Below, piece by piece: positions 30,141 to 54,385 of a DNA stretch of 64,000 nucleotides. Below the pieces are notes generated by a model that was given only the letters and a program-made list of their open reading frames with translations, was not told the DNA's origin and searched no databases. The stretch lies in NCBI GenBank assembly GCA_038887295.1, contig JAWAKW010000001.1, positions 100,795 through 164,794 of the forward strand. Reading direction: 5' to 3'. This stretch comes from Candidatus Anstonellaceae archaeon (lineage in GTDB: Archaea > Micrarchaeota > Micrarchaeia > Anstonellales > Anstonellaceae). Within the stretch, counting starts at the first letter, position 1. Every line of letters starts with the position of its first letter. The translations under genes and the position numbers were made by a program.

Positions 30141-30248
30141 TGCAGGGAGGGAGATTTGAACTCCCGATGACCTAAAGTCACCAGATTACCTATTGCCATA
30201 AGACAGATCTTGAGTCTGGCGCGTTAAACCTGGCTCCGCCATCCCTGC
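30141..30248 (-). tRNA. trnL: tRNA-Leu(CAA) with 22-nt intron at canonical 37/38 position
   Basis: Acceptor GCAGGGA/TCCCTGC-A; anticodon stem CCAGA/TCTGG around CTCAAG|A once intron 30187-30208 is removed; long variable arm; T-loop GTTCAAATC; no encoded CCA. Confidence 0.93.
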
Positions 30249-42882: not shown

Positions 42883-42906
42883 GAAGAGAGGCAACTGAAG
42901 TTTGCC
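42883..42906 (+). other. 5' arm of the 23S pre-rRNA processing stem
   Basis: GAAGAGAGGCAACTGAAGTTTGCC is the exact reverse complement of 45837-45860. Confidence 0.85.
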
Positions 42907-42912
42907 GGATAT

Positions 42913-45832
42913 GCATGTTACGCCAATCAGTGGATGGCTAGGCTTCGGTAGTTTCACGGCCCCGTGGCAAGCTGCGAAAAGCTCCGGGTAGGAGCAGGCA
43001 TCCTTTGATCCGGAGATCGGGCGGTGTGCCGAAAGGCACAGATTACCCCGGGAATTAAAACATTCTAGTACCGGGAGGAAAAGAAACCAATAGGGATTCG
43101 GTAAGTAAGGGTGACTGAAAGCCGAAAAGCGCAAACCGAATGCAGTGCGGCAACGCACTGTAGATGTGGGCGGAGCATCCGTTTCCAGATTCGAGGTCGG
43201 CTGGAAAGCCGCGCCATAGAGGGTGAAAGCCCCGTAGATTAATGGAGGCGGAGCGAAGCAAATAAGAGTAGTGCTCATCGAGTATTGGGCATGAAGATGG
43301 CGGGACTAACCGCCAACGCTAAATATAACCGAAGACCGATAGCGAATTAGTAACGCGAGTGAACGCTGAAAAGGAGTCCGAAAGGACAGTTAAAAGAACT
43401 TGAAACTGATTGGTGACAGGTTGATGCAGCGTGGAAGGGCACGACTGCCAAAGCAACCAGCCGAGAGGCTGGAAGCGAGGCAGGCATACCAGCGTTGCAT
43501 CGTTCTTCTCGAAGCAAGAGCCAGGGAGTTGATGTGGTGTGGCGAGGCGAGAGCCGAAGCGAAAGCGAGTGGGCGCATCGAAAGAAAGGCCCGTCGTCCG
43601 AAAGGGCGACCAGTCACACTCATCAGACCTGAAGCCGATGTGAACTAAGCGCGCGCAGGTCGAAGCCAGCCTGACGGCTGGTGGAGGACCGCAACCGGTG
43701 CTAGTATATTCTGCTCGGGTGACGTGCGCTTAGGGGTGATAGTCCAATCGAACTCGGCAATAGCGGGTTCCCCTCGAAATGTCCCTCAGGACAGCCTCGA
43801 TGGAGGTTGGATGCGGGGTAGAGCACTGATCGTAAGGATTGGCCCCGAAAGGGGTCGCCTTGCTGTCAAACTCCGAATCTGCATCCGCCGTAGAAGTCGG
43901 GAGTCGGGTTCCGCTGGGTAAGCTAGCGGGCCATTACGGGAACGACCGGTGCCGCAGTTAAGGTCCCTAAATTCAGGCTAAGTGCTAATCCACAAGGAGT
44001 GTCCGGTCTAAAACAGCTGGAAGGTAGGCTTAGAAGCAGCCATCCTTTAAACAACGCGTAATAGCGGACCAGTCTAGATCGCACATTCCGAAGATGATCG
44101 GGGCTAAGCCTGGTACCGAAACTGCGGAGTTGCCCCAAAAGGGCAATCTGGTAGGGGGGCGAGCTGGCTGGGCAGAAGCAGGGCCGTGAGGTCCTGTGGA
44201 CTGGCCAGTTATGAATATCCTGGTATTAGTAACAGCATATCCAGGCGAGAATCCTGGACGCCGCATAGCACACGGGTTTCTGGGCAATGTTCTTCAGCTC
44301 AGAGTTAGGCGGTCCTAAGGCAATAGCTAATTGCGAATTGCCAAAAGGGAAAACGGTTAAAATTCCGTTCCTGCACAGGTAGATGCGGCAACGCAAGTTG
44401 TGTTCCTGACGCTTTGGGGTAGGGGTGGGGGAGGAGACTTCCCTTAAAGCCCATAATGCCTTGGAGTCTCATTATGAGGAGAAGAGGCATAAAGGGCCCA
44501 AATCGTCCTGATCCCTGGAGCCCATGAAAAGGGAGCGCAACCGACCCTGTGCATCCGTACCTAGAACTATTACAGGTGCTGCTGGCAGAACAAGCCAAGG
44601 CGTGTCAGGGCAATTCAGCTAAGGGAACTCGGCAAGTTAGTGGCTTAACTTCGGGAGAAGCCATGCCTGCCTTTCCGCAAGGATTGGCAGGTCGCAGTGA
44701 CAAGGGGAGGTCGACTGTTTACCAAAAACACAACTCGCAGCCAATCGGAAACGATTAGTACTGCGGGTGACGCCTGCTCACTACTGGTACGTGAAAGCCT
44801 GTTCCAACGGGCTTAAGCGCCAGCAAAGAGCGGGGGTAACTCTGACCCTCTTAAGGTAGCGTAATACCTCGCCGCTTAATTGGTGGCTTGCATGAAGGGC
44901 GTAACGAGCCTCCCACTGTCCCTAGCTGGAACCTGGTGAACTTACTACTCTGTGAGTATGCAGAGGACTTCTAGGGGGAAACGAAGACCCCGTGGAGCTT
45001 TACTATAGCCTGATCTTGTGATACGAGCGCTGCTGCGGAGCGTAAATGGGAGCCGCTATGTTGCACCTCTCGGGGTGCAAATAGGCGCCGTTGTAACACC
45101 ATTCAGCAGTGCTTGTATTGCTCACCGCAAGGGACAGGGTCAGGTGGATAGTTTGGCTGGGGCGGTACGCCCTCGATAAGGAAAATGCGCATAACCAGTT
45201 TTTAGAGGAGGGTTAGGCGCATCTTCAAACAAGGGCGCCCAATGTTCAGCTTAGGCGGGTCAGAAATCCGCCGTTAAGGGTTAAAGACAAATGCTGGACT
45301 GACTGTATCCTTAAAAGCGTGGGATGCAGAGACGAAAGTCGGGCTTAACGAACCTTGGTGCCTTTTTAGTGAGGGCCCAAGCTGTCAGACAAGCTACCCC
45401 GGGGGTAACAGGCTCGTCGCGGGCGAGAGTACACATCGACCCCGCGGTTTGGTACATCGCTGTCGGCTTAGGTCATCCTGGGGGTGCAGGAGCCCCCAAA
45501 GGTTGGGTTGTTCATCCATTAAAGACCTACATGAGCTGGGTTCAGAACGTCGCGAGACAGTTCGGTAGTATCTCCTAGGAGTGTTACCGTTTGAGAGGAA
45601 GAACCCATGAGTACGAGAGGAACTTGGGTTCGGCGCCTCTGGTCTACCGGTTGTGTCAAGCATCGCCGGGCAGCTACGCGCTATTGGATAAGACCTGAAA
45701 GCATCTAAGGTCGAAGCCAATCTCAAAACTAGACGGTGTAGGCGGTCATAGCAGATGACTTTGATAGGGCGGGGGTGTAAGTGGTTAGCTTACGCGAGCC
45801 ATTCAGCCTGCCGCTACTAAAGCCGTTCATGC
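42913..45832 (+). rRNA. rrl: 23S rRNA (archaeal, divergent; not linked to 16S or 5S here)
   Basis: Conserved landmarks GTGGATGGCTAGGCT, CTTAAGGTAGCG, GGCTGGGGCGG (P-loop), GAGCTGGGTTCAGAACGTCG, AGTACGAGAGGAAC (sarcin-ricin loop); ends inferred from GCATG/CATGC helix 1, plus or minus ~10 nt. Confidence 0.97.
45181..45226 (+). other. ~46-nt hairpin insertion (intron or expansion) in 23S helix 81 loop
   Basis: Interrupts CGCCCTC...AGGGCG; GAAAATGCGCATAACC pairs with GGTTAGGCGCATCTTC at 14 of 16 positions. Confidence 0.75.
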
Positions 45833-45836
45833 TCAA

Positions 45837-45860
45837 GGCAAACTTCAGTTGCCTCTCTTC
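45837..45860 (+). other. 3' arm of the 23S processing stem, overlapping the end of the convergent CDS
   Basis: Perfect 24-bp complement of 42883-42906; 45845-45860 also encode KRGN-stop on the minus strand. Confidence 0.85.
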
Positions 45861-50314: not shown

Positions 50315-53300
50315 TCACGATATTCTAGAACAGAATAAATGATTATTCGTTATAGGTATTTTAACATTACAATATTGAAGTACGCTAGTATCTGGTACCC
50401 TTCCACAATCAACCCCAACCTCCCCTCTTCTTGGGTATTGTATAAGTTCGTTCCTTTGCTTGATTGCTTCAATTTTGCTATAAGTATACCTTATCTCCGA
50501 GCCAGTTCTGGCATCGCTTGTATTAAGGCAGCATTTATCCTTGTTTGGCACTGATGCAAGTATGTCCCAATAATCATCTGAAATGTCAGAGTAATTCTTC
50601 AGAGCTTGAAATATCTCACCCATGCTGGTTTCAATTCTGCAGAAAAGATTACTTTGCCCAGGTTGCGGCGCAGGCATCTGGCTGCATCTTGTGCATGCAG
50701 AAAAGTTCACACACATTGCAGGACATCTGTAATATGAGTAGTTCGTCCATGTCGGATCAGGCATACTACATTTTTTGCTGTCTAGGCAGTAAAGCTGTGG
50801 CAAGTCTTCATCACCAGGCTGGTAATTGACATTAGGCATGCAATAGCCACTTGCAATATCCGCTTGGCTGCAAGGCTCGCATATACATGTTTTGTTTTCT
50901 GCATAAACTTTCTGTCCATAAGTCATCTTGTTTATACCCAAAATCTTCCTCGAGTGATTTTGCAAGGAGCAAAACACATCAGTCTTGCTTTGCATCCCAA
51001 GTCTTTCAAGAGTTAACTCGTTTGCAGAAATAATATCTGTTGTACCAGTTTTTACCCCCTTGTCCCAGTTCGGTTTGTTATAATCTACATAAATCCTTCC
51101 ATCCTTAGTCAGCCATGCATCGTATATAAGTCCAATTACTCCAGCATCCACCATATCTGCCTGATGGTCGAACAAGTAGCTGAGAAACTTATCAATATTG
51201 CAATTTGTATTCCTTTCAAAATGAAATCTCCATATAATCGAAGGGCGAGAATAATTTTTCAGAAAATTCCTGCTAATGTTCATTCGATAATTGAATTCCC
51301 TCTCTATCTTTTCTTCGTCGCTCACTCCTCCTTTGTTGCACTTCGGCACCCATTCTTGAAGCAGCAAATCAACATAGCCCGGATACTCGTCAGGGACAGC
51401 ATTTGCTATTCTCCACTCCCTCCCTCTTTCTCCGGGCTTGTAAAAGAAATCATCAAGGGTCGAATATACATCCGCTTCTCTCCCTTCTGGATCGCCCACA
51501 TCAATTGCAATAAGCGGTGGGTTCTTGCTTGTTTTCTTAAAGTAGACTGCAGTGTAGATGGTGAGGTTTTTTCCTCCATTAAGATATATTCTCTCATTAT
51601 TGGATGTTTTTTTAATATTCAAATATTCTGCAAGTTCCATGTTATATGCCCCATCCATAGACCAAATCGAGCCCCTTAAGCTTTCGTTTTTTATATGTGT
51701 CAGATTGGCTATAGCATAAATAACTGCACCATCTATGTATGGTATTTTTTTCGTCTGAGAAAACTTTATTTCAGGCCCATATTTAGTTTTAAGAAGACCT
51801 TCTATTATCATCATGTGCCATTCGACGGCCGAAAGATACGGACCACCTTCGCTTATATCCAAGATAGGCATGACTCCTGCTGCAAGATAGTCCCTCGTCT
51901 TTTGAACTACAAATGGAAGAGACGGTTCCATCATGAGTGGCGTATGCCATCCATGCTCAGAAGATGAAAATCTAAATTCCACATTCCTTTCTGGATCAAA
52001 CCAATTCCGCCCCCACCCATCGGTGCATATATACTCTGCAGTATGTCCATCAACTCTTTGGTCATAAAATCCTCTTCCTAACCAACCATCTTGGTCATTT
52101 CTTATTTTTCCTTCAACTACAAAATCTCTGCTTACAGGATTAATATCATAAGCATTATTTCTTGTACTTCTTCCGTCAGCCATCATTGTTGGGATTCCAC
52201 CATCTGAAGCAGTGTAATTATAATAGGCTCTAAAAGAATAGCAATTATATTTCCAAGGGCTCATTCCAAAGGTTATTTTTTGAACAGCTAAAGTTGCATA
52301 CGTGCAAGGTGCACACCAACCAAGAGTTCTCAGCTCAAGGTAAGGTGCTGTTGCTGCTTGTGGCACGTCGGTCAGTTTGCATCTTCCAATCGCCCCCTGC
52401 CCGTTGACCGTAGTAAAATCAAGATGATATGCAGAAACATAAACTCTCCAGCCTTCTTTCTGCACTTTTTGTCCTGCAGCGTTATACGTCTCTTGCGTAC
52501 ATAGAGGCGAATCAGTAGAAGGAATTTTAATTGACGGAGAATTTTTAGAATAAAGTTTTATGACGCCAGATGTGTCAATCATGCACATTTCAACCTGAAC
52601 AAATACAGAAGGATCTAAAGCAGCTTGCTGTATTTGGGCTTGTGAAAATAAAAGGTCTGTCCTCAACGGTTTGACATTGCAATTCTTCAAAAATTTATTA
52701 GATTCATTTGGCAGTGCAGGTCTTGAAGAGGCATATTTCTGTGTTATAACATATATTGCACCTTTTTGTGGATTTATTCGCCCATCCAATACTAAATTGG
52801 ACTTAGAAAGTTCAAAGCCAAATTCATTAATTGACTTATTAAAAGTGTTAACTACATAAAACGTCCCACTCCCCGCAAATCCATCTTCAACATAACCACA
52901 GTTTATTCTATCTAACCCTTCCCTTTCACATCCGCAATCAATTAACCCCGGACCCATAACGTCTTTGCAAGAAGTCCTTTTGTAAACTGTCTTATCACAA
53001 ACTCCAGATAAGCAATCGATATCACTTTCACATTCAAAATCAGAAGCCTTTTGAGGATCGGATATTTGTTTTCCTAATTGCTTCTCATAGTATTTGTTGT
53101 CAAGTTCAAGAGAAAATTGTCTATGTTGTTTCCACTTCATTCCTTGTCTATGCCCCTCAGTCGCATCACTCCAGAGACATTCTCTTGTACCTTCTTTATC
53201 TAATGGACACGTATAAGGTGCCTTATCAGCACAGTCATGATGGAGATTGAACGTTGATCCTTCAGCCCTCCAATTTTCTTGCTTGCAAGCTTCTTTATAT

Positions 53301-54385
53301 GTTTGGTCACAACTTGAAAAAAGATTGCACGAGCTTAGATAAGTATTTGTTCCGTATATATAATCTGCCTGAAGCACGCTTCGATATCTTGCGTCTGGCT
53401 CAAGGAAAGGGAATTTTTGGCTGTCGTTTGAGCAAGCGTCAGGGTCAGAAAGTATTTGACATTCGTTGAGGCAAGCCTTCTTGTCATCATAAAGAAATTC
53501 TGTGTCTATGCATCGGTATTTTTGGCCTGCGCTTATGGGATTGCAATCCTGTGGCGGGAGAAGTCCAAAGCAGTAGTTTTGGCATTGCTGTTGACTTGAG
53601 AAGTTTAAGCCGTTTTTGCTACAATGATAAGCAATGCCACTGTATTCCCCACACCATGTTGAAGGAGCATTCAAATAATTCATGAATCTATCTTTCCCTC
53701 CCGTTCCGGTAAGCGAACAGAATCTGTCAGATACTGGAAAGAAATACCTTGCCTGCTCAAAATCAGAATAACTTCTCCCAACTCCAAATCTAAACGAATT
53801 TACCCAAAGATTTGTCTTAGCTTGGCGCATCTGATTGTAAAGCCTCTGGTTCATCTCCTTGAATGCACAACTTGTGCCAAATAAGCCTCTGCCAGATAAA
53901 GCGTCTCCACCTGATGCAGAAATAGGGGCAGTCTTCTTGCTTTCATCAAAGTCGCTTGCAACCGGAGTAGGACCAACCTCAAATTTTGAGTATCCACATA
54001 CCATTGCAACACATTTTTCATTTATACATTTTGAAGGCGCCGGATCTGCGCAAATTGGAAATATTTTGTATGCAAGCCCACCTTGGCAAATAGACTGTGT
54101 TTCATTCCAGTAGCAGCTGCTTGTCTTGAGGCATTCTGTTTTTGTCAGGCTAAGGCACTGTGTTCCATCGGTGCAATTTGCAGCACCTTTAGTGGTTGTT
54201 GCAACATCGCAGCTTCCATACACTGTGCCATTAGTGAAATTGCAAATCGGATTTGCAAGCATAACCGAAGGATCTGAACCATTCAAATCAAATATATACT
54301 GTCGCTGGCAGCAGGGGACATATTCATTGCTCGTGCAACCCAAGGCAAGAAACAAGAATCCAATTAAAACTGCCCATTTTTTCAT
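50315..54385 (-). CDS. giant Cys-rich secreted/lipoprotein-like protein (1356 aa)
   Basis: MKKWAVLIGFLFLALGC lipobox-like signal; dense Cys in N- and C-terminal regions; many N-x-S/T sequons; no C-terminal TM. Confidence 0.85.
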   Translation of the reverse strand: MKKWAVLIGFLFLALGCTSNEYVPCCQRQYIFDLNGSDPSVMLANPICNFTNGTVYGSCDVATTTKGAANCTDGTQCLSLTKTECLKTSSCYWNETQSICQGGLAYKIFPICADPAPSKCINEKCVAMVCGYSKFEVGPTPVASDFDESKKTAPISASGGDALSGRGLFGTSCAFKEMNQRLYNQMRQAKTNLWVNSFRFGVGRSYSDFEQARYFFPVSDRFCSLTGTGGKDRFMNYLNAPSTWCGEYSGIAYHCSKNGLNFSSQQQCQNYCFGLLPPQDCNPISAGQKYRCIDTEFLYDDKKACLNECQILSDPDACSNDSQKFPFLEPDARYRSVLQADYIYGTNTYLSSCNLFSSCDQTYKEACKQENWRAEGSTFNLHHDCADKAPYTCPLDKEGTRECLWSDATEGHRQGMKWKQHRQFSLELDNKYYEKQLGKQISDPQKASDFECESDIDCLSGVCDKTVYKRTSCKDVMGPGLIDCGCEREGLDRINCGYVEDGFAGSGTFYVVNTFNKSINEFGFELSKSNLVLDGRINPQKGAIYVITQKYASSRPALPNESNKFLKNCNVKPLRTDLLFSQAQIQQAALDPSVFVQVEMCMIDTSGVIKLYSKNSPSIKIPSTDSPLCTQETYNAAGQKVQKEGWRVYVSAYHLDFTTVNGQGAIGRCKLTDVPQAATAPYLELRTLGWCAPCTYATLAVQKITFGMSPWKYNCYSFRAYYNYTASDGGIPTMMADGRSTRNNAYDINPVSRDFVVEGKIRNDQDGWLGRGFYDQRVDGHTAEYICTDGWGRNWFDPERNVEFRFSSSEHGWHTPLMMEPSLPFVVQKTRDYLAAGVMPILDISEGGPYLSAVEWHMMIIEGLLKTKYGPEIKFSQTKKIPYIDGAVIYAIANLTHIKNESLRGSIWSMDGAYNMELAEYLNIKKTSNNERIYLNGGKNLTIYTAVYFKKTSKNPPLIAIDVGDPEGREADVYSTLDDFFYKPGERGREWRIANAVPDEYPGYVDLLLQEWVPKCNKGGVSDEEKIEREFNYRMNISRNFLKNYSRPSIIWRFHFERNTNCNIDKFLSYLFDHQADMVDAGVIGLIYDAWLTKDGRIYVDYNKPNWDKGVKTGTTDIISANELTLERLGMQSKTDVFCSLQNHSRKILGINKMTYGQKVYAENKTCICEPCSQADIASGYCMPNVNYQPGDEDLPQLYCLDSKKCSMPDPTWTNYSYYRCPAMCVNFSACTRCSQMPAPQPGQSNLFCRIETSMGEIFQALKNYSDISDDYWDILASVPNKDKCCLNTSDARTGSEIRYTYSKIEAIKQRNELIQYPRRGEVGVDCGRVPDTSVLQYCNVKIPITNNHLFCSRIS

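Follow-up and report, generated by a model that had tools for sequence, protein, structure and literature searches.

The 23S rRNA gene and the loop of helix 81

The window analysed here, a stretch of 64,000 nucleotides from a Candidatus Anstonellaceae archaeon of the phylum Micrarchaeota, contains a large-subunit (LSU) rRNA gene on the plus strand (42906-45839) that covers the full Rfam model RF02540 with a score of 2454 bits and is the only LSU rRNA match in the genome (0.87 Mb, 97.6% complete). The cmscan alignment, numbered by E. coli rrlH, places the P-loop (helix 80) at 45157-45167 (+), and the four Gs at 45159-45162 correspond to E. coli G2250-G2253. The hairpin that follows is helix 81 (E. 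coli 2259-2281); folding pairs the 5' strand of its stem (45168-45173, +) with the 3' strand (45232-45237, +, also placed by alignment), and all six base pairs are invariant across the four insert-bearing sequences described below. The apical loop is not of standard length for this helix: opposite two positions of the archaeal LSU model, cmscan leaves 47 bases unaligned.

Comparison of the site in related genomes, which a preliminary description of this DNA had proposed, gives an exact presence or absence of 45 nt: alignment with 24 relatives places the insertion at 45182-45226, in the apical loop of helix 81 (approximately E. coli 2270-2274 in rrlH numbering), and deletion of these 45 nt gives the loop common to the 24 relatives and about 114 genomes, which in intron-less relatives is 13 nt long. 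Because AAA stands at both junctions, the limits of the insertion can slide by up to 3 nt, as far as 45185-45229. The preliminary description had drawn a stem-loop of 46 nt, which the alignment shortens to 45 nt, with 14 of 16 positions paired, which folding confirms; it had also expected a loop of near-normal length upon removal of the stem-loop, and it is the exact consensus loop of the 24 relatives that is restored.

The insert folds into 3, 6 and 5 bp separated by two 1x1 mismatches. The latter two segments constitute the inner helix, in which 45185-45196 (+) pairs with 45211-45222 (+, folding and alignment) as 6 bp, an A.G mismatch (45191/45216) and 5 bp, closed by an A/U-rich terminal loop of 14 nt (45197-45210, +). 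A 53-nt piece containing the insert has a folding energy of -16.5 kcal/mol (z = -4.26), and none of 200 shuffled sequences is as stable. In the lowest-energy fold the insert is a coaxial extension of helix 81. Rfam names no family inside the insert, and C/D box motifs are absent by eye. A repeated mobile palindromic element was considered and rejected, as a blastn-short search against all 30 contigs matches only the insert itself.

Distribution among related genomes

The P-loop and helix 81 were sought by pattern in 401 genomes of the phylum, allowing inserts of 17-47 nt (34-64 nt in metagenomes). The region is uninterrupted in about 114 genomes, in which every genuine rRNA match is exactly 41 nt long, the few pattern matches of other lengths (chance or contaminant) having been left out of this number; the site is thus length-conserved, as the preliminary description had stated. 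A longer helix 81 was found in only four of the 401 genomes sampled: this genome (G000), G016, G200 and G229. Carriers of the insert therefore make up 4 of about 118 genomes in which the region is assembled, and they belong to two distant clades. G016 is a sister species whose 23S rRNA is 99.8% identical and whose independent assembly contains the insert with two small differences; G200 and G229 are two species of one genus in another order. Within the genus of G000, the insert is present in 2 of the 13 species that have the region, with ten other species lacking it, a pattern that is not the vertical inheritance through a clade by which an expansion segment is recognized. Two families of the phylum sample (f13 and f14, 177 genomes) yield zero matches to either helix 81 pattern; either their P-loop and helix 81 sequence is divergent or their LSU genes are unassembled. 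A pattern scan of genome contigs returned chance matches only, in high-GC bacteria.

The insert of G229 and G200 also has 45 nt and occupies the same position, with about 40% of its bases identical to those of the G000 insert. As in G000, its helix comprises 11 bp and a single mismatch and closes a loop of 14 nt, whose sequence differs from that in G000, and five of the 12 inner-helix pairs show compensatory changes between G000 and G229/G200. By these similarities it is a diverged relative of the G000 insert; the compensatory pairs amount to a single evolutionary contrast between two independent lineages and indicate that the hairpin has been maintained, nothing more. A sliding comparison of G000 with G229 in the vicinity of the insert reveals no clear tract of raised similarity and is uninformative on horizontal transfer.

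Relaxed bulge-helix-bulge layout at the junctions

The junctions were scanned for bulge-helix-bulge motifs in two layouts, with boundary pairs limited to those yielding the intron-less sequence. The best solution for the helix 81 insert is layout A, which is tRNA-type. The exon strand of the predicted central helix is AAGG (45178-45181, +) and the intron strand is CUUC (45223-45226, +, from the scan and the alignment); 45179-45181 pair with 45223-45225, which gives three of four possible pairs, one of them G.U, and A45178 stands opposite C45226 as an A.C mismatch. The 5' bulge is a canonical AAA (45182-45184, +) with a predicted cut at 45183|45184, and the inner helix begins exactly one base past this cut. 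The best-scoring boundaries that restore the sequence of the relatives define a predicted excised intron of 45 nt (45184-45228, +), the deletion product of which is that of 45182-45226. At the 3' junction, the predicted cut (45228|45229) falls within another AAA (45227-45229, +); the outer helix is missing (h = 0 in the scan), and therefore the 3' site sits in an internal loop with no clean 3-nt bulge. The pair G45175-C45230 has an ensemble probability of 0.48. A 5' bulge of the form AA|N is found also in G229/G200, in three metagenomic inserts (L164-L166), in the 16S rRNA introns and in those of G014, all described below.

All four insert-bearing genomes retain the three pairs of the central helix, whereas the pair 45181-45226, by which a plain hairpin would be extended, is lost in G229/G200, for which the lowest-energy fold is itself the bulged form. 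In isolation, the G000 sequence folds as a plain extended hairpin at -26.6 kcal/mol versus -23.4 kcal/mol for the splice-competent form; because it is less stable by 3.2 kcal/mol, the splice-competent register makes up approximately 3% of the ensemble, and splicing in G000 would depend on recognition of this minor conformer by the enzyme. When all boundary pairs were ranked without constraint, 59 of 6162 outscored the predicted ones; the score also rewards plain long helices, and a control in which the boundaries were shifted by up to 8 nt was used instead. Four of 570 shifted pairs reach the score of the helix 81 insert, and in 8 of the 11 mini-insertions the true boundaries score higher than all of the roughly 570 shifted pairs; this control is partly circular for L164-L166, whose boundaries were chosen using the motif itself. 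We agree with the preliminary description that no canonical bulge-helix-bulge can be drawn at helix 81: the motif is a relaxed one, with a central helix of 3/4 and a 3' internal loop.

Mini-insertions of the same build

The geometry of the helix 81 insert is common to ten other mini-insertions in this genome and related sequences. A metagenome scan for helix 81 inserts of 34-64 nt revealed three more sequences, L164, L165 and L166, whose LSU genes have no more than about 70% identity with that of G000. Their inserts (42, 58 and 38 nt) are unrelated in sequence and lie 4 nt upstream in the helix 81 loop; their layout matches that of the G000 insert (central helices 4/4, 4/4 and 3/4; inner helices 5 bp), and their removal leaves loop sequences known from intron-less genomes.

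The 16S rRNA gene of G000 (L168; genome contig C1:200631-202244, minus strand), which lies outside the window, contains inserts of 48, 28 and 43 nt (16S positions 378-425, 533-560 and 764-806), as determined by comparison with relatives. Their central helices are 4/4, 4/4 and 3/4, their inner helices 10, 6 and 5 bp, and their outer helices 1, 0 and 2 bp. The 28-nt insert, which G016 and G019 also possess, is inside the 530 loop, where it is very unlikely to be tolerated; therefore we infer that G000 must splice such hairpin inserts. The 16S rRNA gene of G019 (L171) has two more inserts, of 52 and 34 nt. In the 23S rRNA gene (L036) of G014, a member of the same genus, inserts of 57, 47 and 45 nt with central helices of 4/4 interrupt conserved sites equivalent to window positions 44049, 44531 and 44996, and one of the segments adjoins the macrolide site.

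Processing enzymes and tRNA introns

The G000 genome encodes (contig C1, approximately 52216-53400, minus strand) a splicing endonuclease of 395 aa with an N-terminal endonuclease domain and two matches to the catalytic domain, which matches the EndA of ARMAN-2 (PDB 4FZ2) over its full length (E = 4e-129) and is, as judged from its sequence, an ARMAN-2-type (epsilon2), three-unit enzyme. Non-canonical introns are cut only by epsilon2 and (alpha-beta)2 endonucleases (PMC5829648). The genome also encodes an RtcB ligase (E = 8e-179), and neither PF14622 nor PF00636, the domains sought for RNase III, has a match in this 97.6%-complete genome. ARAGORN in intron mode predicts 30 tRNA genes, of which 17 are intron-bearing, with some doubtful calls; a tRNA gene of 108 nt on the minus strand of the window (30141-30248), interrupted by an intron of about 22 nt, is found by Rfam and missed by ARAGORN in default mode. 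The 23S processing stem was inspected for a bulge-helix-bulge motif as a guide to the local preferences of the enzyme: window positions 42883-42906 and 45837-45860 form a perfect 24-bp helix with zero bulges, the sole irregularity being a 6x4 internal loop beside helix 1. Because this stem is unbulged, the usual bulge-helix-bulge site for excision of pre-rRNA is not evident.

Interpretation of the helix 81 insert

We consider it probable, at about 0.8, that the 45-nt hairpin is a bulge-helix-bulge-type mini-intron spliced from the pre-23S rRNA. This estimate reflects the invariant length of the helix, the patchy distribution of the insert, the conservation of the central pairs and the similar mini-introns elsewhere in rRNA, which together outweigh the relaxed motif, the lesser stability of the splice-competent fold and the position in an apical loop, all of which weigh against splicing. 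A mini-intron with relaxed junctions was the first of the three readings offered in the preliminary description, and it is the one favoured by the relaxed bulge-helix-bulge and by a geometry like that of the ten other mini-insertions.

Cleavage, ligation and the identity of the bonds cut are predictions from sequence. In the precursor, CUU at the end of the intron (45223-45225) would pair with AGG of the exon (45179-45181), and AAA (45182-45184) would thereby be displaced into a 3-nt bulge that stacks on the 11-bp hairpin of the intron; the three-unit epsilon2 endonuclease would cut after A45183 and after A45228; RtcB would join the exons, producing a helix 81 loop of 13 nt as in the intron-less relatives; and the excised intron would leave as a small linear or circular RNA.

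The alternative that best survives, although unlikely, is that mature 23S rRNA keeps the hairpin, which would then be a lineage-specific lengthening of helix 81 by the P-loop. An apical loop is a natural place for a retained extension, the lowest-energy fold extends helix 81 coaxially, compensatory changes keep the hairpin, and the bulge-helix-bulge motif is imperfect. Nevertheless, an expansion of this kind, which the preliminary description had also entertained, fits poorly with an insert found in 4 of about 118 genomes from two distant clades and missing from ten species of the same genus, and with a helix that is otherwise invariant in length; helix 81 is not known to have any expansion segment. 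The loss of the closing pair of the extended hairpin in G229/G200, which keep the central-helix pairs, also argues against retention, as does an asymmetric build shared with inserts of the 530 loop and the rRNA core that a functional ribosome would very probably not accommodate. If the hairpin were retained, helix 81, otherwise length-invariant across life, would gain a 45-nt arm beside the P-loop in ultrasmall archaea.

Less likely still is excision without religation, by which the 23S rRNA would work as two fragments. Bacterial 23S rRNA is known to include hairpin inserts in place of helix tips whose removal is not followed by ligation, and such an intervening sequence had been suggested here; in the bacterial sense, the suggestion is disfavoured by the failure to find an RNase III domain in the 97.6%-complete genome. 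Furthermore, RtcB ligase is encoded, and the products of archaeal splicing endonucleases are normally ligated (PMC4496867, PMC7714728). An artefact, either a mis-assembly or an rRNA pseudogene containing junk, might be suspected of a genome assembled from a metagenome and is most improbable, given that four independent assemblies (that of G016 and those of two further genomes besides this one) have an insert at the helix 81 site and that the gene, which scores 2454 bits across the whole model, has no second LSU copy in its genome.

Possible origin and spread of the putative mini-intron

The mini-intron proposed for helix 81 has no ORF and hence no mobility of its own. The preliminary description took short ORF-less introns to be remnants of homing-endonuclease introns, an origin that would be hypothetical for this insert: no long intron came to light at the helix 81 site in scans covering inserts of 17-47 nt across the phylum and 34-64 nt in metagenomes. 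The nearest ORF-bearing intron to its site is located 20 nt upstream in G027 (L019:1715-2576, rRNA on the minus strand): 862 nt between the equivalents of E. coli G2252 and G2253, with 4/4 bulge-helix-bulge junctions (by eye, a 4-nt central helix and 3-nt bulges) and an ORF of 236 aa on the strand opposite to the rRNA that contains a LAGLIDADG_3 domain. This intron was considered as group I and rejected as such, having no Rfam match and bulge-helix-bulge junctions by eye. Among the hairpin introns of less than 50 nt with a bulge-helix-bulge motif that have been catalogued in the 16S rRNA genes of Thermoproteales, one owes its spread to co-conversion with an intron that encodes a homing endonuclease and lies 8 nt from it (PMC4496867). 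One possibility is that the helix 81 insert spread likewise, by co-conversion with a neighbouring homing-endonuclease intron such as that of G027. A 9-base A/U-rich word is common to the terminal loop of the insert (window 45197-45205) and the start of the G027 intron (approximately L019 2568-2576, minus strand); with a chance estimate of roughly 0.1, it may mean nothing. A milder alternative to retention of the hairpin in the ribosome would be that the loose specificity of epsilon2 endonuclease let ORF-less hairpin introns colonize the loop of helix 81 repeatedly, possibly by a route of mobility that needs no homing endonuclease.

Comparison with known systems

The insert most resembles the hairpin introns of Thermoproteales, such as Pog.S1205 (PMC4496867): both are ORF-less and essentially one hairpin (28-58 nt among the sequences described here), both occupy conserved rRNA sites patchily among close relatives, their removal restores the host sequence, and the tRNA splicing endonuclease and RtcB are presumed to process both. 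What is new with respect to these crenarchaeal 16S rRNA introns is the host phylum, which belongs to DPANN rather than Crenarchaeota; the site, which is helix 81 of the 23S rRNA, beside the P-loop, rather than in 16S rRNA; and the looser junction motif, with a 3/4 central helix, no outer helix and an epsilon2 partner enzyme. The long LAGLIDADG introns of rRNA genes (in the 23S rRNA of Desulfurococcus and Pyrobaculum, and in that of G027, where the intron is in the same host region) have the junction geometry that the helix 81 insert shows in relaxed form, but the insert lacks their ORF. As with the non-canonical tRNA introns of ARMAN-2 (PDB 4FZ2; PMC5829648), for which an enzyme of the family encoded here is responsible, the motif is relaxed, and its cleavage by a strict alpha4 or alpha'2 enzyme would not be expected; unlike those introns, the insert is hosted by rRNA, and epsilon2 cleavage of rRNA substrates is putative. 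Bacterial 23S intervening sequences and the expansion segments of eukaryotes and Asgard archaea are also hairpins at a helix tip, but the former need the RNase III that was not found in this genome, the latter are inherited by whole clades, unlike the patchy helix 81 insert, and neither needs the 4-nt exon-intron pairing.

The loop of helix 81 adjoins the active centre and is modified in eukaryotes, to m3U in yeast and, in human ribosomes, to m6A within a UAACG motif (PMC3950682, PMC10915109). Matched by eye, as the archaeal loop is 2 nt longer, the AAC motif appears to contain the predicted splice site. A limited search of the literature yielded no description of a helix 81 intron. At two positions of this loop, separated by 4 nt, at least four unrelated inserts have settled (the G000 and G229/G200 type, L164, L165 and L166). 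Within the reduced 0.87-Mb genome of this tiny symbiotic archaeon, two rRNA genes contain at least four such putative introns, one of them in the 530 loop of the decoding centre; therefore, we infer that ribosome production must depend on the epsilon2 endonuclease. A link between the broad specificity of the epsilon2 type and the spread of introns with relaxed motifs is thus open to test. Universal rRNA primer sites are interrupted by such inserts, which can also cause errors when DPANN genomes are annotated from rRNA.

Micrarchaeota rRNA genes are known to contain bulge-helix-bulge and group I introns together (PMC6125680). The 23S rRNA gene of G019, a species of the same genus as G000, has a group I intron recognized by Rfam in addition to an insertion of about 920 nt without an Rfam name, at L035:4037-4327 and the equivalent of window positions 44839-44850.
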